Shown in pieces: positions 2,027 through 51,091 of a stretch of DNA of 64,000 bases (its first letter is position 1; every line of letters starts with the position of its first letter). The notes under the pieces were generated by a model, which did no database searches, had not been told where the DNA came from, and saw only the letters and a list, made by a program, of their open reading frames with translations. The stretch comes from Gammaproteobacteria bacterium. Lineage in GTDB: Bacteria > Pseudomonadota > Gammaproteobacteria > Tenderiales > Tenderiaceae. Both the position numbers and the translations under genes were made by a program. The stretch spans positions 940-64,939 of the forward strand of contig JAKFXL010000018.1 of the NCBI GenBank assembly GCA_021731365.1, in the 5' to 3' direction.

Positions 2027-2040
2027 ATAGTATCGCTCAC

Positions 2041-2529
2041 TTAACGGTAAGGTGCATCTTCGGCACGGTCCGCAGCAATCTGCGATTCAAGACGATCACC
2101 CACAACCAACAATTTATCTTTGGTCATGATCTGCTCACCACGCTTTTCAAAGTGATACTCAAATTCCCGTGTCTCAACAATAGCATCCACAGGACACGCC
2201 TCCTCACATAGCCCACAATAGACGCACTTAAAAAGATCAATGTCATAACGGGTAGTGCGACGAGTACCATCATCACGCTGGTCAGATTCGATGGTAATGG
2301 CAAGCGCTGGGCAGGTCGCTTCACACAGCTTACATGCAATACAGCGCTCTTCGCCATTAGGATAACGCCGCAAAGCGTGCAGACCGCGAAAACGGGCCGA
2401 CTGCGGTGTTTTCTCTTCTGGATACTGTACCGTAATCTTTCTTGCAAAGAAGTACTTGCCTGTCAATTTCAGACCCAGCAACAACTCCCACAACATAAAG
2501 CTCTTAACATAGTGGCGCATCATATTCAT
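2041..2529 (-). CDS. nuoI: NADH-quinone oxidoreductase subunit I (2x[4Fe-4S] ferredoxin)
   Basis: 162 aa with two CxxCxxCxxxCP motifs ([12 protein letters not shown] and [12 protein letters not shown]), typical of NuoI. Confidence 0.92.
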
Positions 2530-2546
2530 ATCAGGCCGCTCCTTAC

Positions 2547-3611: not shown

Positions 3612-3636
3612 TCTTTATATTCTCGTCTTCGCTCTT

Positions 3637-7341: not shown

Positions 7342-7347
7342 AAGATT

Positions 7348-7854
7348 CTACTCGAGACTATCCAAAATGGAGTCTATCTTCTCCGGTGTCAGATCTTCGT
7401 AATATACCCGTCCAATCTGCATCATTGGCGCACCGGCACAAGCACCCAAGCACTCCACCTCTTTCATGCTGAACTTACCATCAGCACTCATCTCGCCAAA
7501 CTTGATACCCAATCGCTTTTGCAGATGGCCTACCACTTCCTCTGAACCGCGCAACAGACATGAAATATTGGTACAAACGCACACCTTATGACGCCCCACA
7601 GGTTTAAGCTCATACATCGAGTAAAATGTGGCCACTTCATAAACAGCAATCGCAGGCATATCCAGATACTCTGCCACTGCATCCATCAAATCATTTGTCA
7701 ACCAGCCACCATTTTGATCTTGCAGAATCCGCAAAGCAGCCATAGACGCAGACTGCTTCTGATCAGCCGGATACTTGGCAATCCACATATCAATTTCAGC
7801 GCGGGACGCTGGGGTGATCAAATCCAGTTTACTTTGGGACATCTGTTGGGACAT
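7348..7854 (-). CDS. nuoE: NADH-quinone oxidoreductase subunit E
   Basis: 168 aa with thioredoxin-like 2Fe-2S motifs (..CVCTNISCLLRG.., ..CLGACAGAPMM..). Confidence 0.93.
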   Translation of the reverse strand: MSQQMSQSKLDLITPASRAEIDMWIAKYPADQKQSASMAALRILQDQNGGWLTNDLMDAVAEYLDMPAIAVYEVATFYSMYELKPVGRHKVCVCTNISCLLRGSEEVVGHLQKRLGIKFGEMSADGKFSMKEVECLGACAGAPMMQIGRVYYEDLTPEKIDSILDSLE

Positions 7855-9107
7855 CAGCGATCCACCTCTCCAAACACGATATCTTGTGTACCGATAATTG
7901 TGACAACATCAGCAATCATATGGCCACGGGACATCTCATCCAGACCAGCCATATGAGCAAACCCGGGCGCTCTAATCTTCATGCGATACGGTTTATTAGC
8001 ACCGTCGGAGACCAAGTAGACACCAAACTCTCCCTTTGGATGTTCAACTGCCGCATACGCCTCACCCACCGGCAGACAATACCCTTCGGTATAAAGCTTA
8101 AAGTGGTGAATCAACGCCTCCATATCGCCCTTCATAAGCTCGCGGTTTGGTGCAGACACCTTGTAATTATCCACCTTCACTGGACCAGGATTTTTACGCA
8201 ACCAATCAACACACTGCTTGATAATATGGTTAGATTGACGCATCTCTTCAACACGCACCAGATAACGATCGTAGCTGTCACCTTCAACACCCACTGGAAT
8301 ATCAAAATCAAGACGGTCATACACTTCGTAAGGCTGTTTTTTACGCAAATCCCACTCAATGCCAGAACCGCGCAGCATTGGGCCAGTAAACCCCATCTGC
8401 AAAGCACGCTCCGGGGAGACAACACCAATACCTACCGTGCGCTGCTTCCAGATACGATTATCTGTCAGGAGTGTTTCATACTCATCCACGTACGTTGGAA
8501 AACGTTGTGTAAAGTCTTCGATAAAGTCGAGCAACGAACCCTGTCGATTACGGTTCATGCGATCCACATCACGGGCATTATGCCACTTGGATGGCTGATA
8601 ATGAGGCATCCGATCCGGCAAATCACGTGCTACACCGCCTGGGCGATAATAAGTAGCGTGCATGCGCGCACCCGAAACAGCTTCGTAAGCGTCGAGCAGA
8701 TCCTCACGTTCACGGAAGGCATACAAAAAGACCGTCATCGCGCCAATATCAAGTGCATGGGCACCGAGCCAGAGCAGATGATTTAGAATACGGGTCATCT
8801 CATCAAACATGACACGAATGTATTGGGCGCGCAGCGGGATCTCCATCCCAAGAAGTTTTTCAATGGCCAATACATAACCATGCTCATTGCACATCATGGA
8901 GACATAATCGAGACGGTCCATATAACCAATGTTTTGATTATAAGGCTTGCCTTCAGCAAGCTTTTCGGTAGCGCGATGCAAAAGGCCGATATGCGGATCC
9001 GCACGCTCAATCACCTCGCCATCAAGCTCCAACACCAGACGCAGCACTCCATGCGCCGATGGATGCTGTGGACCAAAGTTCATAGTGTAATTACGAATTT
9101 CAGCCAC
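7854..9107 (-). CDS. nuoD: NADH-quinone oxidoreductase subunit D (not fused to NuoC)
   Basis: 417 aa beginning M(GTG)[23 protein letters not shown], the conserved NuoD/49-kDa N-terminus. It is a separate gene from nuoC. Confidence 0.92.
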
Positions 9108-9109
9108 GA

Positions 9110-9718
9110 TTATCTACCCTTTGCCATTTTTTCGTAACGGTTATCATCACGAATCACACGCGGGACATTAACGCGCAACTCTATTGATACCGGCTCATAC
9201 ACAACACGTTTACGTTCAGGGTCATAGCGCATCTCCACATGACCTATCAACGGAAAGTCCTTTCGGAAAGGATGGCCAATAAAGCCATAGTCAGTCAAGA
9301 GCCTGCGTAAATCAGGATGATCCTCAAAGAGTATGCCAAACAGGTCAAACGCCTCACGCTCATACCAGTTTGCCGCGCTCCATATGTTAACAACCGAGCT
9401 GATCTTAGGCTCGTCATCATCCACAAAAACACGCACCCTCAAACGCACATTATTCTTGATAGAGAGCAGGTGGTAGACAACAGCAAAACGTGATCCCTGC
9501 CAGCGGCTAGAGCCATATTCAAGGTAATCCACGCCACACAGGTCTATCAGCTGCTCAAAATGAAACTCAGGATCATCGCGCAGGAGAGTGCATACATCAA
9601 CCACTTGGGCGGCGGCAATCTCAACAGTGACTTCATCTACCGCAACACGACAGCTCTGCAAAATCTCGCCAAAACGGGCGTGAAGGGATTCAACCAATTT
9701 CTCAAGCGTAATAGACAT
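9110..9718 (-). CDS. nuoC: NADH-quinone oxidoreductase subunit C
   Basis: 202-aa 30-kDa subunit family, ATG start, immediately upstream of nuoD. Confidence 0.9.
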
Positions 9719-9728
9719 TAATCAACTC

Positions 9729-10205
9729 TCAACGCGCAATGGTATTAGTACGGCGGATTTTATTCTGCAACTGAATTATCCCGTAGAGCAGAGCTTCTGC
9801 CGTTGGGGGACAACCCGGCACATAAATATCCACAGGCACAATCCTGTCGCAACCGCGAACCACAGCATAAGAGTAGTGGTAGTATCCACCACCATTAGCG
9901 CATGATCCCATGGAGATAACCCAACGCGGTTCCGACATCTGGTCATACACCTTACGTAGCGCAGGTGCCATTTTATTGACCAGCGTCCCGGCCACAATCA
10001 TCACATCTGACTGACGGGGACTGGGGCGAAAAACCACACCAAAACGATCCAGATCGTAACGGGCTGCACCTGCATGCATCATTTCAACAGCACAACAGGC
10101 CAAACCAAATGTCATTGGCCAAAGCGAACCTGTACGCGCCCAGTTAATAAGCTTGTCGGCAGTTGTGGTAACAACCCCCTTCTCGAGAATGCCTTCTATT
10201 CCCAC
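9729..10205 (-). CDS. nuoB: NADH-quinone oxidoreductase subunit B
   Basis: The track ORF starts with GTG at 10226. An internal GTG at 10205 gives the typical N-terminus (M)[13 protein letters not shown]...[16 protein letters not shown]...CPGCPP. It overlaps the 3' end of nuoA by about 10 nt. Confidence 0.85.
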
Positions 10206-10552
10206 TCCAAAGCCCCTTTTTTCCACTCATATATAAAGCCTACAACCAGAATGCCAAGAAACACCATCATGGAGAGAAAGCCAAACATCCCGATCTCCTT
10301 AAGCACCACTGCCCAAGGAAAGAGAAAAGCAATTTCGAGATCAAATATTATGAAAAGAATAGCGACCAGGTAGTAGCGCACATCAAACTTCATGCGCGAA
10401 TCCTCAAACGCCTCAAAACCGCACTCATACGGCGACAGCTTTGCACTGTCTGGACGATGGGGTGCCAACACAAAACCGGCAACAACAGGTCCCACACCAA
10501 ATAAAATGGCAAGTACGAGGAAGATCAAAACCGGCAAGTAATTTTCTAACAT
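10196..10552 (-). CDS. nuoA: NADH-quinone oxidoreductase subunit A
   Basis: 118-aa small membrane subunit ([19 protein letters not shown]...), the first gene of the nuo operon. Confidence 0.9.
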
Positions 10553-10811
10553 TTAAGTCGCCCTCCCATTACTCGACTCTTGATTAACTTCAAGACCGGA
10601 ACATAAAAACTCAACAAACATGGCCGCTACTGTTATTTTATTTATAGCGTTGGAGGGGCAGTCTAGGCTAGTTATTCGCGCAGTGTCAACCCAAATAACC
10701 CGGACAGAAGCCGCTGCATTCATGAGGTTAGCGATGCTCTTATTTTCGCACTAGATCAAACAACACAAACTTATCATTTTTATTATTTAAGCAGTCTTGC
10801 TGCCTTTAATT

Positions 10812-10896
10812 TGGTGCCGATGGCCGGACTCGAACCGGCACAGCTTGCGCCACTACCCCCTCAAGATAGCGTGTCTACCAATTTCACCACATCGGC
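10812..10896 (-). tRNA. tRNA-Leu (anticodon GAG)
   Basis: Minus-strand read is GCCGATGTGGTGAAATTGGTAGACACGCTATCTTGAGGGGGTAGTGGCGCAAGCTGTGCCGGTTCGAGTCCGGCCATCGGCACCA. It has a cloverleaf with a long variable arm, the anticodon loop cuuGAGgg, an encoded CCA end and a TTCGAGT T-loop. Its position after secG matches E. coli leuU. Confidence 0.9.
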
Positions 10897-10918
10897 AATT
10901 CTTTACAAATCAAAAATC

Positions 10919-11245
10919 TTAATTGGCCGGAAGCACTGGCTTATCTGACGGCAAATCCAGTGATGGCTTATCAGTCACTGATTGAGTCGACTCAATCACG
11001 CTTTTATGCTCCCCGCGGTGCCCGCCAAAGTAACTCAGCGTAAGGCTGGTCACAAAAAAGAGCGTCGCAACTAACGCTGTAGCGCGAGTCAAAAACGAAG
11101 CTGAACCCTGACTACCAAACACAGTTGACGAGGCGCCGCTACCAAAAGCCGCGCCCACATCTGCACCCTTACCGCGCTGAACAAGCACCAATACAATCAG
11201 TGTAATCGTCAACACAATATGAATCACAGTAAATACTGCAACCAT
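10919..11245 (-). CDS. secG: preprotein translocase subunit SecG
   Basis: ATG start at 11245 (MVAVFTVIHIVLTITLIVLVLVQRGKGADVGAAFGSGASSTVFG...), a close match to SecG. Confidence 0.92.
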   Translation of the reverse strand: MVAVFTVIHIVLTITLIVLVLVQRGKGADVGAAFGSGASSTVFGSQGSASFLTRATALVATLFFVTSLTLSYFGGHRGEHKSVIESTQSVTDKPSLDLPSDKPVLPAN

Positions 11246-11276
11246 CAAACCTTCCCCTGATTACCAGCCACAGCGC

Positions 11277-12029
11277 TTATGTTGCCGCCCTGCAAATTGT
11301 CAAAAATTCTTCAGCATCGAGCGAGGCACCACCTATCAACCCGCCATCGATGTCAACCTGGGCAAACAGCTCTTCAGCGTTGCCACCCTTCACGCTACCA
11401 CCATAAAGGAGCTGGATTCTAGCAGCTAACGAGGGGTCTTTCATAGCTATTCTTTGGCGAATAAACGCGTGTACGCTCTGAGCCTGCTCAGGTGTCGCTG
11501 TCATGCCCGTACCAATGGCCCACACCGGCTCATAGGCAATAACAGCACTTTGCAACGCCGCCAGCCCGGCCTCGCTGCTTAACAGCGCATCAAGCTGGCA
11601 AGAGATGACCGCTTCGGTCGTGCCTTGCTCACGCTCCGCCAGTAGCTCACCAATACACAGTATCGGGAGCAGACCGGCTTTGCTGGCAGCAACCACCTTT
11701 TCCGCCACAATCGCATCACTCTCCCCACACTGGGCGCGACGCTCTGAATGGCCAAGAATGACATATTTGCAACCGACATCCAGTAACATGCCAGCAGAGA
11801 GCTCACCCGTGTAGGCCCCCCCAACATGCTGAGACATATTCTGGGCACCTAGAGAGACTGGCGAACCTCGCAATACCCTTTCCACCATCGGCAAATAGAC
11901 AAATGGCGGACAAAGAACCACATCAGCGACGGATGACTTCAGCCCGACTTTAATCGCACTCACTAAAGCCTCACCATCTGCCGCGTTACAGTTCATCTTC
12001 CAATTACCGGCGACTAGTGACTTACGCAT
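11277..12029 (-). CDS. tpiA: triose-phosphate isomerase
   Basis: Start at the internal ATG (MRKSLVAGNWKMN...), with catalytic-region motifs ..ILGHSERR.. and ..AYEPVWAIGTG.. Confidence 0.93.
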   Translation of the reverse strand: MRKSLVAGNWKMNCNAADGEALVSAIKVGLKSSVADVVLCPPFVYLPMVERVLRGSPVSLGAQNMSQHVGGAYTGELSAGMLLDVGCKYVILGHSERRAQCGESDAIVAEKVVAASKAGLLPILCIGELLAEREQGTTEAVISCQLDALLSSEAGLAALQSAVIAYEPVWAIGTGMTATPEQAQSVHAFIRQRIAMKDPSLAARIQLLYGGSVKGGNAEELFAQVDIDGGLIGGASLDAEEFLTICRAAT

Positions 12030-23529: not shown

Positions 23530-26500
23530 CTACTGCCAATTGGCGGTAATCACCGGGGTCAGTGCCGCGTCATATTCAGGTGACAACGACGTCTGCCCAG
23601 CAGCAGGCGGGGCAAATGAAGCCATCGCACTCACCAGATTCTCTACCCGGGTATCCAGTAATGTTTTGCCATCAGCGGTCGTAAACTCCTCAATTCGATA
23701 AGCATTACCAGAATACCAATTACTGATGGTGCTTCTATCACTCGTCCCAATAATACTGACTTCTAAATCAGAACCCATCCGGCGGAACCAAAGCTGATTA
23801 ATATCAACGCCGCCCCCAACTGATAACCGATCGCTGTTACCAAGAGTAGTATCGTAATCGTTAATGACATCAGCACTCGAACCACGTCCAAACAGGTAGG
23901 TGTCGTTGCCAGTGCCACCGTTGAGGGTGTCGTTGTCGGCACCACCGTTGAGGATGTCATTGCCTGCCCCGCCGTTGAGGGTGTCCATGCCTGCGCCGCC
24001 CAGTAGGGTATCGTTGCCGGCATTGCCGTTGAGGCTGTCGTTACCAATACCACCATCGATCTGGTCGGCCAGCGCACCCCCATAGAGATAGTCGTTACCG
24101 TCGAGGCCGAAGATGCGGTTGGTACCATCGTTGTAGCCGCTGATCGAGTCACCGTTCACAGTGCCGTTGGTGATGACGCGGGCCTTGATGGCGGCTTCGT
24201 CCCAGGTGACGCCGTCGCTAAACTTGAACTGTTCAATCTTGTAACCGGGGTAGCCGGAGTTGAAGTATTCATTGACGGTCAGTTGGTCTGCCGTACCGTA
24301 TTTGATGACGAGGTGGTTGCCACTGCGTTCCAGCGCCGTCAGGGCGGTGGAGGCGACGTTGCTGAACTGGACGACGTCGCTGTTGCCGGCGGTGGTGTCG
24401 TAGTCGGTGATGGTGTCGACGCCCGACCCAAGGGCAAGCAGGTAGGTGTCGTTGCCTACGTCACCGTTGAGGGTGTCGTTGTCGGCACCGCCATTGAGGA
24501 TGTCATTGCCTGCCCCGCCATTGAGGATGTCGGTACCAGCACCGCCCAACAGGGTGTCGTTGCCGGCATTGCCGTTGAGGCTGTCGTTACCGTTGCCACC
24601 TTCGATCCAGTCAGCCAGCGCGCCACCGTAGAGATAGTCGTTACCGTCGAGGCCGAAGATGCGGTTGGTACCATCGTTGTAACCACTGATCGAGTCATTG
24701 CCTACGGTGCCGTTGGTGATGACGCGGGCCTTGATGGCGGCTTCGTCCCAGGTGACGCCGTCGCTAAACTTGAACTGTTCAATCTTGTAACCGGGGTAGC
24801 CGGAGTTGAAGTATTCATTGACAGTCAGTTGGTCTGCCGTACCGTATTTGATGACGAGGTGGTTGCCACTGCGTTCCAGCGCCGTCAGGGCGGTGGAGGC
24901 GACGTTGCTGAACTGGACGACGTCGCTGTTGCCGGTGGTGGTGTCGTAGTCGGTGATGGTGTCGACGCCCGACCCAAGGGCAAGCAGGTAGGTGTCGTTG
25001 CCTACGTCACCGTTGAGGGTGTCGTTGCCTGACCCGCCATCAAGAATGTCGTCGCCATTATCACCATTAAGATTGTCGTTACCATCGCCGCCAAACAGGG
25101 CATCCATACCCCCGCCACCATAAAGGGTGTCATTACCCGCCTGACCATCAATAAGATCATTGCCGTCACCAGCACTAAACACATTGCCAGAGGCATTACC
25201 CACAAACGCATCATCACCACTTGTTCCAGAAGTAGCCACTGCTGAAAGTGAATTAATCCCAGTGGCGACAAAAGCATTACGAACATCCTGTTCCGTCCCC
25301 CACCGTTGCTTCAACGAACGTAATTGCTCCGTACCATCCCATCCCATCTGGTTAAACCTCTCACCATAGATTCGATTCAGATCAAGGAACAGCGCCGCGC
25401 CTTCTTGAGTATTTGCGGCCATGGCCTCTGATACGCTTGCATTCAATCCATCAAACCCAACAGTAACGCCAGTGGCTGATATGTTCAGGTCAACCAAATC
25501 AAGATATTGCGACAGGCGTAGCGAAGGCATCAGGTTATTAGTGGCATCGTCAACCAGTCTGTCCCATAGATTTTCAAAATACGAGACGCCATTTGGCATG
25601 GGTGGAATGGTCACTCGAATGTAATCGTCATAGAGCAGCACACCATTGCGTTGTTCAGCTATTAATTGCGAAAGCGGCACCACAACTTCAACCGGCACTA
25701 ACCTCACCCCCTCTTCATAAACCGGCAAGCCAAGACGTGGGACATAGTGTGCGTCATTGTAGACCTGCCCCCAATCCAGAAAGGTGTGCCCCGTAAATGC
25801 CTCATAGGCATAAAGCTTTTCAAGTCCGCCCACCATGCGTTCACGCATGGCATCGAATTTACTGAGATCATCGGCCAACAATGTGGCCCGGAATGCGTTA
25901 CGGTCCACTTCGCTGGCTTTGATGCCCACATCCATCCAGCCACGCTCCTGGTCATCCAAAGGTCCACTCAGAATAAGACCATAGCCTGCGGCCAAAGCCT
26001 CTCTGCCAGCACTGAGGTATTCGGAACCATCGCCCCACTCACGCATTAATTGCTCAACAGAGGATTCAAACTCTGCCCGTGTTGGGGCATTTTTAGCCTG
26101 ATTAACCAAGGCGACCAAATCCGGATTGAGTGTTGCCGCCTCACGCAAATCTCGCACCCAACCGCTGCCATTAATATCCGGCAGCGCCATAGCTGCCTCG
26201 CCCACAATAACTGGGACGTACTCACGAATAGTGTCGTTTTGCGCAAACAGAAAACTGCCCGCCTGGCCACTACTACCATCGGTACGGGTAAAGGTGCTCT
26301 CTAGCACCATCACGGAGTCACCATAAACGGTACCGGATACACTGCTGTTGAGCTTTATGCTAGCAATGCCACTTGCCGCCAATGTCTGTAGTTCGTTTGC
26401 CTGACTAATACCGTCTTGATTCAGGTCGCGCCAAACGCGCACTTCTGAATAAAAATCATCCTGGGCATCAAAATTAAAATCAGGGTGACTGTTAAGTTGA

Positions 26501-27342
26501 GCCAACGCATCAAAACCATTACCTGCCTTTCGCCCATTAGACAACAACATCTCATCGCCAAAAATCTCAGCGCCTGAATCGATAATGCCGTTGCCATTAC
26601 GATCCCACACCAAAATGCCATCATCAGCGCCGGCCCAAGCGGTGGCTGTTTTTATGGTATCGCCGTTGGTGTCGAACATGACACCACTACTGAGCGGGGT
26701 GATCTCGATGCCATCGCCGTCCAGATCGAGGATCAATGGATCGCGGTAGGGAATGAGGCGGGTAATGGTGACCATGGGGTCAGGGGCGTTGATGATGGCG
26801 TCAGAGATGGCAGACCCACTTTGGGAGTCATTACTTGGCGGGCTATCGTTCCATGGCTTGCTTGGGTCAGTCGGATTTGCCCATCCTCCATCTGGAGGAT
26901 AAATCCTGTTCCCGTCTATGTCATAGTATTTATTTGTTGAAATATTAGTGCCTTCAGGCACTAGCTGCGATGGTCCTTGCGAAAATTCCTTCCCATCAGG
27001 GGAAACAGTAATGGTGGGTTGCCATATCATGCCAGGAGGTGGAGTTGTCTGATTTGCGGGAGCAAATCCAGGCACCCCATCGGCTTCAGCCGCCGCTTGT
27101 ATTCGCTGATTTGCTTCACGAATTTTTTCGCCCGTTGTTCTTAAGTCAGTTGCCCATGTGTCAACAATATCCCTTACTACATAGCCAACAGCGGGTGGCA
27201 TAAGGCGACTAGCCGCATCGAATATAGCATTCACGTACTCAACGGCCTGAAGTGGGTCACTTCTATTTTCAATGGCATCTCCCGCGTTAATTAAATCATG
27301 GATTATTTGATTGGTTTTATTTGCTGTCCCTAGTAATGACAT
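23530..27342 (-). CDS. large RTX-family calcium-binding protein, probable type I secretion substrate (1270 aa)
   Basis: Many GGxGxDxL/I nonapeptides (GGAGNDILNGGADNDTLNG...). The C-terminal region (..DVINDYDTTLGNSDRLSVGGGVDINQLWFRRMGSDLEVSI..SNWY..RIEEFTTADGKTL..) matches a T1SS C-terminal target domain. The N-terminal half has EF-hand-like loops (DLNQDGISQANE). It is adjacent to hlyD. Confidence 0.85.
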   Translation of the reverse strand: MSLLGTANKTNQIIHDLINAGDAIENRSDPLQAVEYVNAIFDAASRLMPPAVGYVVRDIVDTWATDLRTTGEKIREANQRIQAAAEADGVPGFAPANQTTPPPGMIWQPTITVSPDGKEFSQGPSQLVPEGTNISTNKYYDIDGNRIYPPDGGWANPTDPSKPWNDSPPSNDSQSGSAISDAIINAPDPMVTITRLIPYRDPLILDLDGDGIEITPLSSGVMFDTNGDTIKTATAWAGADDGILVWDRNGNGIIDSGAEIFGDEMLLSNGRKAGNGFDALAQLNSHPDFNFDAQDDFYSEVRVWRDLNQDGISQANELQTLAASGIASIKLNSSVSGTVYGDSVMVLESTFTRTDGSSGQAGSFLFAQNDTIREYVPVIVGEAAMALPDINGSGWVRDLREAATLNPDLVALVNQAKNAPTRAEFESSVEQLMREWGDGSEYLSAGREALAAGYGLILSGPLDDQERGWMDVGIKASEVDRNAFRATLLADDLSKFDAMRERMVGGLEKLYAYEAFTGHTFLDWGQVYNDAHYVPRLGLPVYEEGVRLVPVEVVVPLSQLIAEQRNGVLLYDDYIRVTIPPMPNGVSYFENLWDRLVDDATNNLMPSLRLSQYLDLVDLNISATGVTVGFDGLNASVSEAMAANTQEGAALFLDLNRIYGERFNQMGWDGTEQLRSLKQRWGTEQDVRNAFVATGINSLSAVATSGTSGDDAFVGNASGNVFSAGDGNDLIDGQAGNDTLYGGGGMDALFGGDGNDNLNGDNGDDILDGGSGNDTLNGDVGNDTYLLALGSGVDTITDYDTTTGNSDVVQFSNVASTALTALERSGNHLVIKYGTADQLTVNEYFNSGYPGYKIEQFKFSDGVTWDEAAIKARVITNGTVGNDSISGYNDGTNRIFGLDGNDYLYGGALADWIEGGNGNDSLNGNAGNDTLLGGAGTDILNGGAGNDILNGGADNDTLNGDVGNDTYLLALGSGVDTITDYDTTAGNSDVVQFSNVASTALTALERSGNHLVIKYGTADQLTVNEYFNSGYPGYKIEQFKFSDGVTWDEAAIKARVITNGTVNGDSISGYNDGTNRIFGLDGNDYLYGGALADQIDGGIGNDSLNGNAGNDTLLGGAGMDTLNGGAGNDILNGGADNDTLNGGTGNDTYLFGRGSSADVINDYDTTLGNSDRLSVGGGVDINQLWFRRMGSDLEVSIIGTSDRSTISNWYSGNAYRIEEFTTADGKTLLDTRVENLVSAMASFAPPAAGQTSLSPEYDAALTPVITANWQ
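23885..25026. repeat. tandem direct repeat, about 2.1 copies of a 546-bp unit (about 97-99% identity), inside the RTX gene
   Basis: 24241-24480 is nearly identical to 24787-25026 (2 mismatches in 240 nt), and 23885-24240 resembles 24431-24786. The unit encodes a 182-aa module (..DVGNDTYLLALGSGVDTITDYDTT.GNSDVVQFSNVASTALTALERSGNHLVIKYGTADQLTVNEYF..IEQFKFSDGVTWD.. plus RTX nonapeptides). Confidence 0.9.
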
Positions 27343-27410
27343 GGCATATCCTTTTTGGTTATTAAATAATTAATCTATGCAACATAAAAAATTTAATCCG
27401 CGAATGACTA

Positions 27411-27683
27411 TCATGGAACAGTCGGAGGATTAACCCAGTTTTCAGGAACTTTTATTATCAGCCTTTCAATAGAGCTCTGTTTACGCCTAACACAAGTAAA
27501 TATTTTTGATGTTATTTTAAGTTTTTCATTGTTGCTTAAATTGCTTTTATCACTGATCTTTTCTCTATCAATAGGACTCGCACACTTCAACGTTAAATAA
27601 CCCAATCTAACCACCACAATATAATCAAACCCGAAATATCCCGTTATGAGTAGCAATACGCCAATAATTAGTTTTTTATTCAT
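27411..27683 (-). CDS. small AT-rich membrane-anchored hypothetical protein (about 90 aa)
   Basis: ATG at 27683 (MNKKLIIGVLLLITGYFGFDYIVVV...), one N-terminal TM segment. Its codon composition is clearly AT-rich relative to its neighbours. It lies between the RTX gene and hlyD. Confidence 0.45.
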   Translation of the reverse strand: MNKKLIIGVLLLITGYFGFDYIVVVRLGYLTLKCASPIDREKISDKSNLSNNEKLKITSKIFTCVRRKQSSIERLIIKVPENWVNPPTVP

Positions 27684-27841
27684 GCCGACAATAACTCGTG
27701 CACACAAATAATCATAATAAATTTTCGTGGAATTCCATAATGTCCGCTCCCATAAAGATGAGCAGTAAAATTCACGCACGAAGCTGTTTTGAGATATCTC
27801 ATCAATTTATTCAAACTAACTTTATCTCTATTCAAACTCAT

Positions 27842-29185
27842 TTAACGTTCCCTCCCACTCTCATCCGCATACTGCATCAACGGGCTCAGCACATACTCAA
27901 TCAACTTTCTCTTACCTGTTTTAACCTCTACCGTCACTGACATACCAGGACTAAGATTAATCATCTTATCCTCTACACGAATGGTGTTCTGTTTTAGCAA
28001 AACTCTGGCAGTGTAGATCAACCCCAGTTTCTCATCGGCCACGGCGTCATTGGATACGTTGATCAGTTCTGCGTCAATGGCGCCGTATTTGGTGTAAGGA
28101 AAGGCATCCACCTTCACTTCTGCTATTTGTCCTTCACGCACAAAGCCGATGTCTCTGTTGACGATGATGGCTTCGACTTCAATGCCTTCGTCTTGGGGCA
28201 CAATAACCATCAGTTGTTGCGCCGGTGTGACGACGCCGCCGATGGTGTGCACCGCAAGTTGTTGCACGATGCCATCGACCGGGGCGGTGAGGCGCAGCAG
28301 TTGGTTGCGCTGGTCGGCTTTGATTGATTCCTGGTTTAATCCTTGGCCACGACGTTTGGCATCGGTGAGTTCGGCCAGGGCATTGTTGAGGGCGTTGGCC
28401 TCTTCTACTTTTCGTTGTTCTTTGAGTTGGGCGAGATTGGCAATGAGCTCCTGGCGGCGCTGTTTTTGGATGGCGAGGTCTTGGGTCTGTTCGATGCGTT
28501 GTTGTTCGAGTTCGAGATAGGTGTGGCGTGGGGCGAGCTGTTTGTCGGCGAGTGTTTTGAGTGATTCGGCGCGTTCGGTGATGATCGGCAGTGTGGCTGC
28601 GAGTTTTTTGATCTGCTCTTCGGTGCCGATGAGTTCGGCTTCACGACGCAGCTTTTCGTTATCCAGACTGCTTAGCGTGGCTTGATGCTGTTGCCACTGG
28701 CTGGCGAGCAGTTGCTTTTGCGGTTCGAGCACATCGATGCTGGTGGTGTTTGGCCAGTGGGCGATGGGGGCGGTGTGGCTTTGCATGGCGATGATGAGGG
28801 CAGTGGCGCGGGCGAGTTCTGCCTGGGCGGTGCTGTATTCGTTGCCGAGCCGGGTGGCATCGGCCTGGGTGCCGGTGGTGTCGAGGTCGATCAGTGGGTC
28901 ACCCTTTTTTACACTCTGTCCCTCGCGCACATGGATGACACTGACGCTGCCGATCTCCAGTGGTTGAATAATTTTGGTGCGGTCGCTGGGGATCACTTTT
29001 CCTTGGGCGGTGGCGACGATGTCGACCTTGCCGAAACAGGCCCAGAGGATGGCGATGGTAAACAGAATCACGATGCTCCAGGTGATGGCGCGACCGATGG
29101 GCGATGGTGGGGTCTCCTGGATCTCCAGTGCGGCGGGCAGGAATTGGAGTTCATGTTTGTTGCGTTCGATGGTTAGGTTTTGCAT
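27842..29185 (-). CDS. hlyD: type I secretion periplasmic adaptor (HlyD family)
   Basis: 447 aa: N-terminal TM (ITWSIVILFTIAILWACF), long coiled coil, and a C-terminal region (..APVDGIVQQLAVHTIGGVVTPAQQLMVIVPQD..LSPGMSVTVEVKTGKRKLIEYVLSPL) that tracks E. coli HlyD closely. Confidence 0.9.
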   Translation of the reverse strand: MQNLTIERNKHELQFLPAALEIQETPPSPIGRAITWSIVILFTIAILWACFGKVDIVATAQGKVIPSDRTKIIQPLEIGSVSVIHVREGQSVKKGDPLIDLDTTGTQADATRLGNEYSTAQAELARATALIIAMQSHTAPIAHWPNTTSIDVLEPQKQLLASQWQQHQATLSSLDNEKLRREAELIGTEEQIKKLAATLPIITERAESLKTLADKQLAPRHTYLELEQQRIEQTQDLAIQKQRRQELIANLAQLKEQRKVEEANALNNALAELTDAKRRGQGLNQESIKADQRNQLLRLTAPVDGIVQQLAVHTIGGVVTPAQQLMVIVPQDEGIEVEAIIVNRDIGFVREGQIAEVKVDAFPYTKYGAIDAELINVSNDAVADEKLGLIYTARVLLKQNTIRVEDKMINLSPGMSVTVEVKTGKRKLIEYVLSPLMQYADESGRER

Positions 29186-40129: not shown

Positions 40130-40446
40130 ACGTCACCGCCCCCTTTTTTCATCTTCTTCCCCTCTGCCGCACGCTGACGACGCACCTCTTTAGGGTCAGC
40201 AATCAGCTTGCGGTAGATCTCAATACGATCCCCCTCACGCAGACCACTGGCAGTTAACTTGGTCAACTTGCCAAAAATACCCACTTTGCTGTCGGCCAGA
40301 TCGATCTCCGGAAACTTATCCAGAATCCCGGACGCCTTAACAGCATCCTCCACCGTTCCATCCTTAGCCACATTAGCCGTCAAAATAAGCTGCGTATCCG
40401 GCCGTGCATACGCCACCTCAACCTTAATCATTTCACCGTTTTCCAT
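40126..40446 (-). CDS. RnfH-family ubiquitin-like protein (YfjF/RatB-like)
   Basis: ..MIKVEVAYARPDTQ..V..GTVEDAVKASGIL..IDL...VGIFGK...REGDRIEIYRKLIADPKE.RRQRA, characteristic of RnfH/YfjF. The start is ambiguous between M17 and M22 of the track ORF. It overlaps the ratA 3' end. Confidence 0.8.
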   Translation of the reverse strand: MENGEMIKVEVAYARPDTQLILTANVAKDGTVEDAVKASGILDKFPEIDLADSKVGIFGKLTKLTASGLREGDRIEIYRKLIADPKEVRRQRAAEGKKMKKGGGDV

Positions 40447-40870
40447 AGACCTCCACCGCCCGCTGACAAAAAGCATCCACCAAAGAGTTGGCAATCTGGC
40501 TAAATACCGGCCCCACCGTCAAACCCAGAAACTTGTTCGAAAACTCAAACTCCATCATCAACGACACCTTGCACGACACCTCGTCCAACACATCAAAGCG
40601 CCAAAACCCCTCCAGATGGTGGAACGGCCCCTCTTCCAGACGCATCTCAATCATCTTATTGATCTGCATCCGGTTACAGGTTGTAAACGTTTTATTAATA
40701 CCGCCCTTACTCAACTCCAGGCAACCCCGCACCTCATCATCACCCCGACTCAATACCCGGCTGCTCTTGCACCAAGGCAAAAAAGCTTGATACGAATCGA
40801 TATCATCCACCAGCGCATACATCTCCGCCACAGAATAAGGCACCAAAGCACTACGATTAATCGCTGTCAT
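40433..40870 (-). CDS. ratA: SRPBCC-family ribosome-association protein RatA/YfjG-like
   Basis: Start at MTAINRSALVPYSVAEMYALVDDIDSYQAFLPWC.., which tracks E. coli RatA (..SRTALVPYSAEQMY..). Confidence 0.85.
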   Translation of the reverse strand: MTAINRSALVPYSVAEMYALVDDIDSYQAFLPWCKSSRVLSRGDDEVRGCLELSKGGINKTFTTCNRMQINKMIEMRLEEGPFHHLEGFWRFDVLDEVSCKVSLMMEFEFSNKFLGLTVGPVFSQIANSLVDAFCQRAVEVYGKR

Positions 40871-41031
40871 ACCACTCCAAAATCCCAAATAACACTGCGA
40901 GCACAGCCGCCTGCGTTAAAAACCGCTGTAAACGATAGCCGAAGGCAGCGCCCCCCCGCAACCCATGCTAAAAATAACCAGCAACAATTTTACACCGGAA
41001 ACTCACACATCGATTAGCACTACCATTATAA

Positions 41032-41523
41032 TTGGCACCCATGAGCAAAAACGCACAAACAAAGACAGGCCAGGGCGGCGGCACCATTACCCTCAACAAA
41101 AAAGCCAAACACGAGTTTTTTATTGAGGACAAATTTGAAGCGGGCATCGTACTCGAAGGCTGGGAGGTCAAAAGCCTGCGCGCCGGAAAGGTGCAGATGC
41201 GCGACAGCTACGTCCTGATCAAAAATGGCGAGGCGTTCCTGATCGGAACCCTGATCTCGCCACTGAACACCGCCTCCACCCATATCCACCCCAGCGCCGA
41301 ACGGACCCGCAAACTGCTGCTCAACCGCCACGAACTGAGCAAACTGATCGGGGCTGTCGAGCGCCAGGGCTATACCGTCATCCCCATTGCCATGTACTGG
41401 AGCAAAAACCGGGTCAAACTCGAAATTGGCCTTGCCAAGGGCAAACAGGAACACGACAAACGCAATACCGAACGTGACCGCGAATGGGCACGCGACAAAC
41501 AGCGCATCATGAAACGTGGCTAA
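41032..41523 (+). CDS. smpB: SsrA-binding protein SmpB
   Basis: ..TITLNKKAKHEFFIEDKFEAGIVLEGWEVKSLRAGK.., a near-canonical SmpB. Confidence 0.95.
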   Translation: MAPMSKNAQTKTGQGGGTITLNKKAKHEFFIEDKFEAGIVLEGWEVKSLRAGKVQMRDSYVLIKNGEAFLIGTLISPLNTASTHIHPSAERTRKLLLNRHELSKLIGAVERQGYTVIPIAMYWSKNRVKLEIGLAKGKQEHDKRNTERDREWARDKQRIMKRG

Positions 41524-41578
41524 ATCATCGCTGGCCGGGAACCTCCCGGTCAGATACAATGATCCACTTGAACCAAAG

Positions 41579-41937
41579 GGGGCGATCTGGCTTCGACGTG
41601 GATTGCGAAACCCAAGGTGCATGCCGAGGTGTAGGTCCCCTCGTAAAACAATCTACAAACTTATAGTTGCCAACGAAGACAACTACGCACTCGCTGCTTA
41701 ATACCCAGTAGGGTGCCCTCGGCCCAAGTCTGTGCTTGTGCACTTGGTAACCGGGGTCGACTCACACAAGCTCGCGATGAAGTTAGTCTGGCACCGATTC
41801 GTTAAATTCTTACAGACTCGCTGTTTGTCTTCCCTGCCAATCGGGTAGCATGCAGTTAAATTAATAGATTGGATAAGCATGTAGAGCTGAAGGCAGAGGA
41901 TTTGCGGACGCGGGTTCGATTCCCGCCGCCTCCACCA
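41579..41937 (+). ncRNA. ssrA: transfer-messenger RNA (tmRNA, SsrA)
   Basis: Starts GGGGCGATCTGGCTTCGACGTGGATTGCGAAACCCAAGGTGCATGCCGAGG, which parallels E. coli ssrA. The tag reading frame is GCC AAC GAA GAC AAC TAC GCA CTC GCT GCT TAA (ANEDNYALAA). The 3' end is tRNA-like: GGACGCGGGTTCGATTCCCGCCGCCTCCACCA. Confidence 0.95.
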
Positions 41938-47299: not shown

Positions 47300-47445
47300 G
47301 GTTTTATGTGGCGCTTGCCTGGTTTCCACGGTCCTCCGTGGGCTTGTGCCCGATCTGGGGGTAAATCCATACCTCACTTCACTCATCACCCTCCGTCTGC
47401 ATTCCCATACCCACAGGGCACAAGCGCCGGAGCGTGGGAACGAAA
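47300..47445. repeat. hairpin-rich palindromic repeat element, locus A (about 1 unit)
   Basis: GGTTTCCACGGTCCTCCGTGGGCTTGTGCCC...CATACC.CACTTCACTCATCACCCTCCGTCTGCATTCCCATACCCACAGGGCACAAGCGCCGGAGCGTGGGAACGA. It shares the CCCACGGTCCTCCGTGGG and TTCCCAC...GTGGGAA hairpins with loci B and C. Confidence 0.8.
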
Positions 47446-47498
47446 GAAATTTTCAACACACACTGATCAAGCCTGTTTATATACAGTGCTTAACAACG

Positions 47499-48243
47499 CT
47501 ACGTTACAGGCAATCGGATAAATGCACGGGCAATATGAAGTAAACGATTTTTCCGTGCTACCTCAACACCCTCACGACTACCGGCACTGTTGGTATTCCC
47601 CTCTATAGAGGTAAATGAATTACCCTGCGCCGACTCAACAATGCCGATATGCGAAAAGGTGAACACCACAATATCACCCTTGCGAGGCCGGTACAGCTCA
47701 CTTTTAGCATTAAAAACAATACACTTTTTGCGTCTTGGCCCAAATATTTAAAAAACGATTTACTGACGCCTCACGAGGTGCTGTCACCCCATGAAAACTA
47801 GAAGACTGTTTTATCAACAGTTGAGTACAGTGAGATACAAATGCCGCGCACCACGGATACCCATCCGTCGTCGTCGGGGTTAACTTAAGATCATCTGCGG
47901 AAAAAATCTCTTGTAGACTTTTAGATGTGCCAGCACGATTATCCCACGTCTCCCTAACACCAATATACTTCGCCGCAATATCAGCCAGAACACTCTGAGC
48001 TGAATTGACTGACGTAGTGTTGGTAACCGGCTTAGCGGAGATCAAATGTGCATTAGTCGCTGGACCAACCACACCATCCACAGCAATACCAGCACTCATC
48101 TGAAACTGCTTTACAGCTTTTTCAGTAGCTTGACCAAAACTACCATCAACAACCATTGGCGGTGACAGCTTAAGCAGCCCATTCAAAAGTACTTGCAACT
48201 TTTTAACAGCCTCTCCTCTCATTCCCCTTTTTAATATTGCCAC
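47499..48243 (-). pseudogene. peptidoglycan-binding-domain / TIGR02594-like cell-wall hydrolase gene, apparently frameshifted
   Basis: The 177-aa ORF 47710..48243 has a PG_binding_1-like N-terminus (..LKRGMRGEAVKKLQVLLN..VDGSFGQATEKAVKQFQ..GIAVDGVVGPATNAHL) and ..GYPWCAAFVSHC... The family C-terminus (..AKSELYRPRKGDIVVFTFSHIGIVESAQGNSFTSIEGNTNSAGSREGVEVARKNR..) continues in another frame, down to a stop near 47499. The shift lies near the A/T homopolymers around 47700-47715. Confidence 0.6.
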
Positions 48244-48258
48244 AGTTGACTCCTAATC

Positions 48259-48741
48259 CTATTTATTCGCGCTGTAGAGCATCCATAAATCACCGGGGAT
48301 GCCTTCAACCTCACTGTGATTTTCCAAAATCAGCAATCCATCATTCGTCGCAGAACCGGTTATACCCGGCCCTTGAAATTGATGATCATCAATACAGGTA
48401 ATCGAGTATGTTTTTTCTGATATTGGCAATCCCGGCTCATTGAAGCTACGGCTAAGCTGCCATGTTTTATTTTTTTGAACCAAATTTACACTGGAAACTG
48501 CGCCACCCATTTCAATACGGTAAACCCCAGCAGCCATTACTTTGGCCACCTTAAAAGTGGAAAAAGAGACAACGTCAGTCCCCACCAACACATCATCGAT
48601 CTGAGCGCCTTCATTTGTAGGGTTGCACACCACAGCCTGAGGAGCACTCAATGCCACTATCGGTGACTCAAGTTCAGAGGAACATCCCGATACCAGAGCA
48701 AGACCCAACAGCATCGAACACAAATATCCACACCGTCTCAT
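48259..48741 (-). CDS. hypothetical lipoprotein (160 aa)
   Basis: MRRCGYLCSMLLGLALVSGC (lipobox L-V-S-G-C). It lies directly upstream of the hydrolase gene on the same strand. No recognisable domain. Confidence 0.6.
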   Translation of the reverse strand: MRRCGYLCSMLLGLALVSGCSSELESPIVALSAPQAVVCNPTNEGAQIDDVLVGTDVVSFSTFKVAKVMAAGVYRIEMGGAVSSVNLVQKNKTWQLSRSFNEPGLPISEKTYSITCIDDHQFQGPGITGSATNDGLLILENHSEVEGIPGDLWMLYSANK

Positions 48742-48828: not shown

Positions 48829-49057
48829 ACCCTGGTACCCACGGTCCCCCGTGGGCTTGTGCCAAATCTGGGGGTAAACCCATACCGCGCTTCACTCATC
48901 ACCCGTCGTCTGCATTCCCACGCCGGAGCGTGGGAACGAGAGGCTTCGGTTTAGCTGCCGTGGTGGCTGAAACCACCCTGGTTCCCACGGTCCTCCGTGG
49001 GAACCCATACCGCACGTCACTCATCACCCACCGTCTACACTCCCATACCCACACGGA
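48829..49057. repeat. hairpin-rich palindromic repeat element, locus B (about 2 units)
   Basis: ACCCTGGTACCCACGGTCCCCCGTGGGCTTGTGCC...GCCGGAGCGTGGGAACGAGAGGCTTCGGTTTAGCTGCCGTGGTGGCTGAAACCACCCTGGTTCCCACGGTCCTCCGTGGGAACCCATACCGCACGTCACTCATCACCC... is nearly identical to parts of locus C. Confidence 0.85.
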
Positions 49058-49177
49058 ATATAAATACAAGTGTTTGGAAACAATAACTTAATACACCCTA
49101 CCCACCACCTACCTGTATTTTCACTAGGGACTAATATATCCTTATCCTTCATACCAATATATTCGGAGTCATCTCAA

Positions 49178-50287
49178 ATGGATAACTATCAAATAGTAGG
49201 TACATTTTCAGTACAAGCCAAAAAAACCGAGGACGGCAAACACAGTTTCACTGCTACATCTAAGAACCCCCCCACCAAACAGCCAGTATCCAATCAACCA
49301 CTGGATATCACCTCATCATATACATGCTATCAACCAATCAATCTGCACAGCACCTACTCTGAATACAGAGGCATGATATGGGGGAAGATCGATCTCGCTG
49401 CAGGTGATATCTGGCCCGACTGGGATGGTCAGAGAATCATCATAGAGGCCAGCCCAAGTCGCATTATATATATGAAATACGGAGGGACCAGCAGCCAAAG
49501 CATTTATATACAACCCCCAAAAGACTTTATTACCAACGTAACAACCGACACATTTAATCGAAAAGCCGCAGAAAAAACCAAACTAACCAAAAGACTCGCC
49601 GAATGGGAAGTCCATTTCCTCACTGGTTTTTTAGGGGCCGCACACTGGGCCGGACTTGCTACTGTACTGGGCACGGATATATTGCAACAAGTCATAAGCG
49701 AAAGAAAACGTAATACAAGTTATCGTGAAGCCGCCAACGACATCATTGATGTTGATAAAGATTTAAAAGAAATAGCCCCTGTATTTAGAGGAAAAATATA
49801 TGAAGCCCTTATCGGAGGTATAAAAAGCAGGCCTGGAGAAAAAACCAAAACCCTCATACAAACACTTCCACCACTCATCTTAAAGGATGACAAAACCACC
49901 GGAAGGATTGCGGGCGCAATTGCGGCAAAATTCATGTTCGGCACTAACAACAAAATAGTGACCTTTTTTGTCTTACAAACCATCACCACACAAATTGCAC
50001 TAAAGAGTCCATCAAAACTACCCCCAGCTGTTGGCTTAACACTTCAGGACTCATTAAAAAAGCTGCTGCCTGATATTGATAAACTGGATTCAACCAACCC
50101 CAATGACCAAAAAATATTAATAGATCAGATGGTTGACCTGTTTCAACAGCTGGGCGTCACTGTCAGCGCACATGAATCCACGACCATTGCAGACGAGATC
50201 CGCAGAAACCCTGAACGCATATCAAACAACATGAAAAAACTTGGCAACGCATTTGAAAAAATTGTTAATGCAGATCAAGCCAAATGA
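49178..50287 (+). CDS. hypothetical protein (about 369 aa), AT-rich, no recognisable domain
   Basis: ATG at 49178 with a GGAG SD (MDNYQIVGTFSVQAKK...). It has amphipathic or hydrophobic helical segments (FLTGFLGAAHWAGLATVLG; GRIAGAIAAKFMFG; VTFFVLQTITTQIAL). It is the first gene of a three-gene same-strand cassette. Confidence 0.55.
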   Translation: MDNYQIVGTFSVQAKKTEDGKHSFTATSKNPPTKQPVSNQPLDITSSYTCYQPINLHSTYSEYRGMIWGKIDLAAGDIWPDWDGQRIIIEASPSRIIYMKYGGTSSQSIYIQPPKDFITNVTTDTFNRKAAEKTKLTKRLAEWEVHFLTGFLGAAHWAGLATVLGTDILQQVISERKRNTSYREAANDIIDVDKDLKEIAPVFRGKIYEALIGGIKSRPGEKTKTLIQTLPPLILKDDKTTGRIAGAIAAKFMFGTNNKIVTFFVLQTITTQIALKSPSKLPPAVGLTLQDSLKKLLPDIDKLDSTNPNDQKILIDQMVDLFQQLGVTVSAHESTTIADEIRRNPERISNNMKKLGNAFEKIVNADQAK

Positions 50288-50664
50288 GGACAACACCAAC
50301 ATTGCTGTCACTCTTACTGTCCGCCCTAATCACTCTACCCATCGTATGTGCTGCCGGTCAGGCTCAAAAAGATACCACGCTATTTATACAAGAGTCTGAG
50401 CGATTCTGCATGTTATTTAAGCCAAACGTCTGGACTGACATGAAAAAAGATCATCAAGGTGCAGCACTCATGGATGAATTTCTCAGACGCGTCGACGAAG
50501 CTGTCAATACACCCGAGTTTGAGGCCATACTTGACCAACAATACAAACAAGAAAAAACACCGACTGCACTCTATCAATACTATATAAAAGAGATCTCGGC
50601 GCTCACCGCCATACCATTTTCCTGCCCCGATTTAAAAACATATTTTGAAGAATCGATCAGATAA
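50284..50664 (+). CDS. hypothetical secreted/periplasmic protein (126 aa)
   Basis: The start overlaps the previous stop (ATGA). It has a signal peptide MRTTPTLLSLLLSALITLPIVCAAGQA. Confidence 0.5.
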   Translation: MRTTPTLLSLLLSALITLPIVCAAGQAQKDTTLFIQESERFCMLFKPNVWTDMKKDHQGAALMDEFLRRVDEAVNTPEFEAILDQQYKQEKTPTALYQYYIKEISALTAIPFSCPDLKTYFEESIR

Positions 50665-50679
50665 CCACAACCCCTCTCA

Positions 50680-51030
50680 TTGACTAAAAAAATGACACAG
50701 AACCATTCGAACTTATTATCAAAAACCGCCATCTTCTTGTTAACAGCGGCCAACATTGCATTGGGCATACTGGTGGCAATTTTGATGATGGGCGGTGAGT
50801 TTCTCAACATAGCACTTGACGTACACAGCCAGGAGACTAAAAGCACGTTTGACGTTTTTTTTACAACCTACGTTCTTCATCCCGCATCGGGGATAGTCTA
50901 TGTATCCATGTTCATCGGCTTGGCCGTGTATCAATATAAAATTAAGTCACGTTTCTATCAGATTATGGCAAACATTGTGATGTTAGCTCTATCACTCATT
51001 ATTTTACTCAAGATATTTTATTTATATTAG
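50680..51030 (+). CDS. hypothetical small membrane protein (116 aa, about 3 TM)
   Basis: TM helices (AIFLLTAANIALGILVAILMMGG; IVYVSMFIGLAVY; IMANIVMLALSLIILLKIFYLY). It is the last gene of the cassette. Confidence 0.5.
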   Translation: MTKKMTQNHSNLLSKTAIFLLTAANIALGILVAILMMGGEFLNIALDVHSQETKSTFDVFFTTYVLHPASGIVYVSMFIGLAVYQYKIKSRFYQIMANIVMLALSLIILLKIFYLY

Positions 51031-51091
51031 TAAGTTGGGGTTCGTGCCATCACCAACACACCCAGCATCAACCCAACCTACAAGCTGATAC

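Follow-up and report, generated by a model that had tools for sequence, protein, structure and literature searches.

The window analyzed in this work, a 64-kb stretch of contig JAKFXL010000018.1 from a gammaproteobacterium of the family Tenderiaceae (assembly GCA_021731365.1), harbors at positions 49178-51030 a cassette of three genes, here named g1, g2 and g3, which lies in a locus for a type I restriction-modification (R-M) system and AbiE and is a candidate antibacterial effector-immunity module. The gene g1 (49178..50287, plus strand) encodes a predicted effector or toxin of 369 amino acids (aa) with no signal peptide, an assignment based on the open reading frame (ORF), the starts of homologues and profile searches. 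It is followed on the same strand by g2 (50284..50664), coding for a 126-aa exported protein with a signal peptide, predicted to be a periplasmic immunity protein, and by g3 (50680..51030), whose product is a 116-aa inner-membrane protein with three hydrophobic segments and a predicted accessory or second, membrane-level immunity protein. The stop codon of g1 and the start codon of g2 are joined in an ATGA overlap (50284 versus 50287), g2 being translationally coupled to g1, and g3 begins at a TTG (50680) located 15 nt past the g2 stop; an alternative ATG at 50692, yielding a protein of 112 aa, agrees about equally well with the homologues. For g1 the preferred start is the ATG at 49178, with a GGAG sequence 10 nt 5' of it, and all g1 homologues start at the same M-x-x-Y-R-I-V-G-T-F. 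A GTG at 49070 (405 aa) was rejected as the start of g1, since translation would begin inside a repeat element and the homologues start at the ATG at 49178. At 0.420, the GC content of the cassette lies below that of the window (0.517), hsdR (0.523) and hsdM (0.561), the value for hsdS being also low (0.452). Scans for promoters and terminators returned scores no better than those of shuffled sequences. The original prediction for this DNA, made from the letters and ORFs, had described three co-oriented, tightly linked plus-strand genes with an ATGA overlap and a 15-nt gap, AT-rich relative to the R-M genes, a signal peptide in g2 and three membrane segments in g3, palindromic repeats on both sides and a position between hsdS/hsdM and abiE/hsdR. 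All of these features were recovered in our analysis, the 15-nt distance holding for the TTG start of g3. The three genes are real, with homologues (to E=1e-162 for g1) and conserved linkage.

No match to g1, g2 or g3 was found in Pfam, NCBIfam or PHROGs, and PADLOC returned nothing significant. The one match in PADLOC-DB v2, between residues 155-222 of g1 (49640-49843) and PDC-M10B (E=0.0034, 15.7 bits), covers a hydrophobic helix, is far below significance and was judged to be due to chance. Likewise, profile searches of PDB sequences with the alignments of the three proteins gave chance-level matches only. A first AlphaFold2 (AF2) model of g1, built on an alignment of 13 sequences, reached a predicted local distance difference test score (pLDDT) of 60 and was matched by Foldseek to generic helical proteins, and a second model, built on 109 sequences, reached a pLDDT of 80.4 and a predicted template modeling (TM) score of 0.60. 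In the latter, a very confidently modeled beta domain (residues ~10-112) is followed by a long helix (114-154) and the remainder of the protein is all-helical. With this second model, Foldseek returned nothing at E<0.001 from the PDB or from BFVD; no colicin structure was matched, and TM scores were 0.16 at most. The statement of the original prediction that the 369-aa protein holds no recognizable motif is borne out by the lack of Pfam, NCBIfam, PHROG and PDB matches, its beta-rich N-terminal third corresponds to the modeled domain at residues 10-112, and the remote-homology search that it proposed, here performed with profiles of all three proteins and with Foldseek on the g1 model, disclosed no relative in the PDB. 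The three hydrophobic or amphipathic stretches that it named in g1 are also real, and are conserved across 109 relatives.

In these 109 relatives the segment equivalent to residues 147-165 of g1 has a mean Kyte-Doolittle hydropathy of 1.70 with 1% charged residues, the conserved charge-free hydrophobic helix spanning positions 147-167. A second segment (241-250; mean 1.34) contains 43% Gly, Ala or Ser and is glycine-zipper-like, and a third (260-278) displays a mean of 1.47. The strongly conserved residues are G76, G84, R86, Q112, F117, E144, G150, P201, G246 and E340, with R86, Q112 and E340 nearly invariant and E144 present in 86% of the sequences. Conserved Cys, His, Ser or Asp residues are absent from g1 in the same relatives, a finding that speaks against hydrolases or transferases of conventional type. 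That two hydrophobic helices, the first of them charge-free, and one rich in Gly/Ala are retained, with none of these four residues conserved, suggests that g1 is a membrane-active toxin.

Close homologues of g1 are rare. They form 13 clusters among 5.8 billion, and with the close alignment five loci, all from Cellvibrionaceae, were found in 185,579 species genomes and two in the metagenome collection, while no g1 relative was detected in 2.9 million viral contigs and tblastn with g1 against plasmids gave no match. A profile search of 1.84 billion representatives widened the family to 202 clusters, which have in common a domain of ~300 aa corresponding to residues 40-369 of g1, and follow-up word-index searches, considering the best 8,000 candidates each, added solely P0159 and P0160. 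The wider family comprises at least 202 clusters at 50% identity and is spread over several phyla. A g2 homologue was found directly after g1 at all of the ~14 independent loci with downstream sequence (the window, L001/2, L003/4/9, L005-L008, L010-L013, L015, L016, L018 and L019), down to a g1 identity of 27%, and the two genes often overlap. Of the three-gene linkage that the original prediction asked to be checked in other genomes, the g1-g2 pair is therefore kept in ~14 independent loci and g3 in the close subfamily only. As to the recurrence in defense contexts, which it likewise wished to see examined through gene neighborhoods, R-M, Mrr or AbiE genes are present at two of the ~14 contexts, namely the window and an Aurantivibrio locus where Mrr and type I R-M genes adjoin the homologue. 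Copies are flanked by IS3 or repetitive extragenic palindromic (REP) elements, and such flanks, together with the rarity and the low GC of the cassette (0.42 versus 0.52), are apparent signs of transfer. The contexts available for the distant members P0138, P0159 and P0160 are short, and an unrelated lipoprotein is encoded downstream of P0138.

The two partners of g1 were followed by scanning hidden Markov models (HMMs) of the three proteins over every fetched locus. All g2 homologues are exported, with either a signal peptide or a lipobox, most of them having a lipobox Cys, and two cysteines, C42 and C114, are invariant. After g2, loci of the close subfamily carry a g3 homologue (seen in the window, L001, L003/4/9, L005, L006, L007 and L019), L018 having a weak 74-aa remnant; the HMM scan found no g3 in L008 and L010-L013, and the sequences of L015 and L016 end too early to count. 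Both g2 and g3 diverge faster than g1; between the window and L001, for example, the identity is 65% for g1, 50% for g2 and 41% for g3.

Extra copies of g2 or truncated fragments of g1, as are typical of toxin-immunity loci, were detected at four loci (L011, L012, L016 and L018). In the metagenome-assembled genome (MAG) OZ252214.1 of a member of the Cellvibrionaceae (L012), a truncated C-terminal part of g1 shows 93% identity to the complete copy and is followed by a second g2 with 47% identity, both upstream of the intact pair. L011 contains g1 debris and an extra g2, L016 tandem g2 copies and L018 an orphan g2. The L012 copy also has next to it a gene for an amidase effector, Tae4 (E=6e-17), accompanied by a putative immunity gene, and the whole region (6592-11925) is an array composed of Tae4 and its putative immunity gene, the orphan g1 fragment with a g2-like gene, and the intact g1-g2 pair; the g2-like proteins of this locus have 300 aa and an extra C-terminal domain. 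Upstream of the g1 cassette of L018 lie genes for a class-3 lipase and a DUF6795 protein (1626-3972). The same DUF6795 and class-3 lipase pair occurs in a Pseudoalteromonas island of Rhs and polymorphic toxins (L021, 12982-15223), and this recurrence suggests that the lipase is an effector and DUF6795 its partner. Imm49 is encoded 4 kb from the L005 copy.

Further indications come from the N-terminal regions of the relatives. About 45 of the 109 long family members have N-terminal extensions, none of them with a signal peptide, and in these a PG_binding_1 domain (12/109) or an eCIS_core/DUF4157 domain (2/109; eCIS stands for extracellular contractile injection system) precedes the g1 domain. 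A peptidoglycan (PG)-binding-like module with the pattern SVGxGGxN...DVxxVQ...PDGRIDPxGxT is N-terminal in 24 of 160 members. The PG-binding domains, of 100-250 aa, stand ahead of the first hydrophobic helix and lack a signal peptide. In P0138, P0158 and P0160 a further N-terminal segment (YIPGxWSxxYxxLP...EVDxxFxxxTGVxRxLDP...WLRIRDEVM), which has no Pfam match, is located ahead of the PG-binding-like module. When P0032 was compared by tblastn with annotated plasmids, matches were obtained solely through the N-terminal module (~40% identity, E=6e-10 to 1e-4): to a papain-like protease of Sagittula encoded right after tssC-hcp-tssE-tssF-tssG-tssH, to a glycoside hydrolase of Pantoea beside tssE-H and tagJ, and to a TIGR02594 amidase of Pseudoalteromonas in an island of Rhs and "polymorphic toxin type 15" genes. 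A small protein with a signal peptide is encoded next in Pantoea and Pseudoalteromonas, and the protein downstream in Sagittula has no obvious signal peptide. As this module is shared with cell-wall hydrolases, the g1 domain appears to occupy the slot of known cell-envelope effector domains. A Pfam scan found no marker domain of type VI secretion systems (T6SS), that is, PAAR, MIX, FIX or a DUF4123 partner, in g1 or its neighbors in the window, L001-L008, L018 and L019; the links to such systems are indirect, namely the Tae4 neighbor in L012 and the module shared with effectors encoded beside T6SS clusters.

In the window, the locus that surrounds the cassette is arranged on the minus strand in the order hsdM (54992-52671), hsdS, the insert, abiEi (47126-46323), abiEii and hsdR (45405-42142). 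The insert carries a second module on the minus strand. Its effector gene (47499..48243) encodes an amidase with PG_binding_1 and CHAP domains and no signal peptide, and is interrupted by a frameshift between 47710 and 47669, which either marks a decaying gene or pseudogene or is a sequencing error; with the two frames joined, the PG_binding_1 match has E=1e-15 and the CHAP match a score of 36.5 bits (cutoff 26). The PG-binding part and the catalytic part of this PG_binding_1-CHAP protein both match endolysin PHROGs. Directly upstream of the amidase, on the same strand, a gene at 48259..48741 encodes a lipoprotein of 160 aa with the lipobox LVSGC, which has no family match in Pfam, NCBIfam, PADLOC or PHROGs and is a candidate immunity protein for the amidase. 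Both modules are bounded by clusters of REP-like palindromic repeats: one upstream of g1 (48831..49045), forming the left boundary of the cassette, one downstream of g3 (51039..51356), which extends to the hsdS stop and folds more stably than shuffled sequences (z = -2.7), and a third (47318..47450) that bounds the amidase/lipoprotein module on the abiE side. The cores of these repeats, GGAGCGTGGGAACGA and CCCACGGTCCTCCGTGGG, are confined within the 64 kb to the three clusters, with 7 and 6 matches observed versus 0.15 and 0.03 expected, and the repeats split the low-GC insert in two, the g1-g2-g3 cassette and the divergently oriented minus-strand pair. That the flanking repeats might be part of a mobile cassette was considered and rejected, as no copies were found in the 17 related loci searched; they belong to the host genome, and elsewhere the cassette does not include them. 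The remaining window is core chromosome, with nuo genes, glmM, ftsH, carAB, dnaK-dnaJ, nadK and recN, to which genes for a protein with RTX repeats and an HlyD-type exporter, a PP2C-kinase fusion, a major facilitator superfamily (MFS) transporter and a nitrite reductase are added. The RTX-repeat protein (1270 aa; HemolysinCabind, HCBP_related) and the nearby HlyD-family membrane-fusion protein, at 23530-29185 on the minus strand, probably form a type I secretion pair of substrate and exporter. Three ORFs flanking the R-M locus (252, 198 and 413 aa; 40259-41622 and 55562-56803) have no Pfam match at E<1e-5, and the fusion of a PP2C phosphatase and a Ser/Thr kinase lies just past hsdM (56885-58594).

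Based on this comparative sequence analysis we consider it moderately probable that the cassette is an antibacterial effector-immunity module of an undescribed family, and its position is best read as one within an insert of low GC, between hsdS and abiE, that it shares with a decayed module of amidase and lipoprotein. The original prediction had left the choice between an anti-phage and a toxin-immunity module. The latter is strengthened by the g1-g2 linkage, the orphan copies, the N-terminal fusions, the neighboring genes and the hydrophobic helices, and support for the former does not go beyond the location of the cassette. Its suggestion of a pore-forming or membrane-active effector with one periplasmic and one membrane partner is likewise supported by comparative genomics. 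From the same comparisons we infer the toxicity, the target and the delivery route of g1 as well as the roles of g2 and g3. In the mechanism that we propose, g1 would be made without a signal peptide and leave the cell by a non-Sec route, most likely the T6SS, with eCIS or lysis as alternatives, and would act from the periplasmic side of the envelope of a competitor, where it would insert into the cytoplasmic membrane and permeabilize or depolarize it, its action not being enzymatic. The g2 product, probably a disulfide-bonded exported (lipo)protein, would bind g1 in the periplasmic space of the producing cell and of its kin, and g3 may add protection at the level of the membrane by blocking g1 within the inner membrane, in the close subfamily only; precedents for such protection are the immunity proteins of pore-forming colicins and the ExiCD pair that counters EsxX. 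Membrane permeabilization as the specific mechanism is advanced tentatively, its probability falling somewhat short of even. We hold with similar reserve the broader proposal that g1 founds a widespread family of envelope-active toxins lacking a fold relative in the PDB, delivered by T6SS or eCIS through swapped N-terminal modules and countered here by immunity in two compartments.

Several observations weigh against the effector-immunity interpretation. Genes for T6SS, eCIS, VgrG, PAAR or adaptor proteins are found neither in the 64-kb window nor within 8-10 kb of the close homologues (L001-L008, L018 and L019), the g1 of the window has no trafficking module and no eCIS_core, and the contexts of the close subfamily are mostly neutral (siderophore genes, TldD/PmbA, a helicase). 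The g1 fragment of L012 is far more conserved than the g2 that follows it, which is not the usual co-variation of a toxin tip and its immunity protein. With respect to the protein itself, the modeled fold of g1 gives no functional anchor, the confidence of the model is lowest at the hydrophobic segments (pLDDT 53-76), and the second hydrophobic helix (260-278) is less clean, with an average of ~1.6 Lys or Arg residues. In addition, a protein with hydrophobic helices is made in the cytoplasm with no evident cytoplasmic immunity.

The setting of the cassette could alternatively point to an anti-phage or abortive-infection module of the type I R-M/AbiE locus, in which g1 would be a membrane-disrupting executioner restrained or triggered by g2 and g3. 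The three genes indeed lie between hsdS and abiEi within the hsdMS...abiE-hsdR locus, the Aurantivibrio homologue (Cellvibrionaceae) directly adjoins Mrr and type I R-M genes, some genes residing within type I R-M operons have turned out to be defense systems, as reported for TgvAB (PMC11411939), "guilt by embedding" works as a predictor (bioRxiv 10.1101/2024.01.29.577857), and there is the weak PADLOC match to the candidate PDC-M10B. Nevertheless, we regard this explanation as unlikely. R-M genes touch just two of the ~14 independent contexts and the other ~12 are unrelated to defense, the PADLOC match is not meaningful at its score and over a hydrophobic helix, and an exported g2 with a conserved Cys pair would be unusual as a sensor of cytoplasmic phage events. 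Moreover, relatives are fused to PG-binding and eCIS_core modules of toxin trafficking, the orphan g2 copies and the Tae4, CHAP and lipase neighbors fit interbacterial competition, and the insert is bounded by REP elements of the host and also carries a decayed cell-wall amidase. The fusions to PG-binding modules, which elsewhere are carried by papain-like, glycoside hydrolase and TIGR02594/CHAP hydrolases, would also agree with g1 being a cell-wall enzyme of new fold, directed at peptidoglycan or at lipid II/undecaprenyl targets and neutralized by a periplasmic immunity protein; the predicted periplasmic location of the immunity protein and the near invariance of R86, Q112 and E340, with E144 at 86%, agree with such an activity. 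This, too, is improbable in our view, given the lack of conserved Cys, His, Ser and Asp residues, the presence of a strongly conserved charge-free helix of 20 residues and of a Gly/Ala-rich helix, the fact that one of the partners, g3, is a membrane protein, and the absence of structural likeness to any hydrolase.

A further possibility is that the cassette is not toxic and that g1 is a resident membrane protein which, together with a lipoprotein and a small membrane protein, forms a complex with an accessory function in the envelope or in stress. One or two helices of g1 could span the membrane, each of the three products would be located in the envelope or close to it, and several contexts are metabolic or housekeeping in nature. 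Such a complex is difficult to reconcile with a very rare and patchy distribution, which comes to five loci for 185,579 species genomes and to 13 close clusters out of 5.8 billion, with low GC and location in variable islands, and with the existence of truncated and orphan copies, and the N-terminal PG-binding domains of the relatives, having no signal peptide, would impose a topology unreachable by normal Sec/YidC insertion; we therefore judge it quite improbable. The size and shape of g3, a three-helix protein of ~112 aa resembling class I holins, the endolysin PHROG matches of the neighboring PG_binding_1-CHAP protein and the eCIS_core domain of two relatives bring to mind a remnant of the lysis or release genes of a phage, tailocin or eCIS, in which g3 would be the holin-like protein, the lipoprotein g2 the spanin-like one and the amidase the endolysin. 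The probability of this last explanation is very low, since g1, g2 and g3 belong to no PHROG family, no relative was found in the 2.9 million viral contigs or among BFVD structures, no phage structural or integrase genes are present near any copy, the amidase is encoded on the other strand, within a unit bounded separately by repeats, and the holin/spanin scheme leaves g1 unexplained.

Taken as an effector-immunity module, the cassette can be compared with several known systems. Cargo effector-immunity pairs of the T6SS that act in the periplasm include the Tae/Tai amidases and the membrane-targeting Tse4/Tsi4, Ssp6/Sip6 and VasX/TsiV2. In common with these pairs, g1 has no signal peptide, a small exported protein or lipoprotein is encoded directly after it by g2, and orphan copies of immunity genes occur; a Tae4 neighbor is present in L012, the PG-binding-like module of the relatives is common to hydrolases beside T6SS clusters, and the Gly/Ala-rich hydrophobic helix of g1 recalls glycine-zipper toxins. 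In contrast, no sequence or fold similarity to any T6SS pair was detected, no vgrG, hcp, PAAR, adaptor or MIX/FIX-type marker is found near the close subfamily, and the second partner, g3, is polytopic. Pore-forming colicins of the E1/Ia type have inner-membrane immunity proteins of ~110 aa with three helices. Likewise, g3 has 112-116 aa and three helices and is encoded in the operon, g1 would be a soluble helical toxin with a buried hydrophobic helix or hairpin and has no signal peptide, and the operon includes a lipoprotein. Unlike colicins, however, g1 lacks receptor-binding and translocation domains, no Pfam match to Colicin or colicin immunity and no Foldseek match to colicin structures were obtained, the mature g2 (~100 aa, with a conserved Cys pair) far exceeds colicin lysis proteins in size, and g2 is universally linked whereas g3 is dispensable in the distant subfamily.

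A parallel to immunity in two compartments is offered by EsxX of Staphylococcus aureus, a glycine-zipper, membrane-depolarizing toxin with two unrelated immunity systems, ExiAB and ExiCD, that operate in different compartments, one of them being a polytopic membrane protein also found as orphan genes (PMC12744356). EsxX differs in that it is an LXG toxin of type VII secretion (T7SS) in a Gram-positive bacterium, the soluble pair that confers immunity to it resides in the cytoplasm whereas g2 is predicted to be periplasmic, and there is no sequence relationship. In eCIS toxins, an N-terminal DUF4157 combined with a C-terminal toxin domain is a hallmark (PMC8213781), and 68 predicted eCIS toxins have PG-binding domains (PMC11297309). 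Two g1 relatives share with them an N-terminal eCIS_core/DUF4157; in contrast, the g1 of the window lacks eCIS_core and has no eCIS genes nearby, and g1 is always paired with g2, whereas most eCIS toxins have no adjacent immunity genes. Finally, like the defense genes PrrC and TgvAB, which are embedded in R-M loci (PMC11411939), the cassette lies between the hsdMS and hsdR parts of the locus, next to AbiE. It differs from them in lacking nuclease, NTPase and nucleic-acid-binding domains, in having exported or membrane proteins as partners, in that the embedding is seen in one genome only, and in an insert that has REP elements at its borders and also holds a cell-wall amidase pseudogene.

The cassette is ordinary as a kind of system, and it is as a protein family and as a fold that g1 is new. 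The locus is also a caution for anti-phage predictions made through "guilt by embedding", since a cassette placed in a type I R-M/AbiE locus looks here like weaponry for competition lodged in a REP-rich variable spot. If g1 proves toxic, it would define a new effector domain family of ~200 clusters with no relative in Pfam, NCBIfam, PHROGs or the PDB, and would add a new fold to the few toxins that target the membrane or the envelope. If the proposed roles of its partners are true, the combination of a periplasmic (lipo)protein and a small polytopic membrane protein would represent a Gram-negative counterpart of the double immunity described for EsxX.

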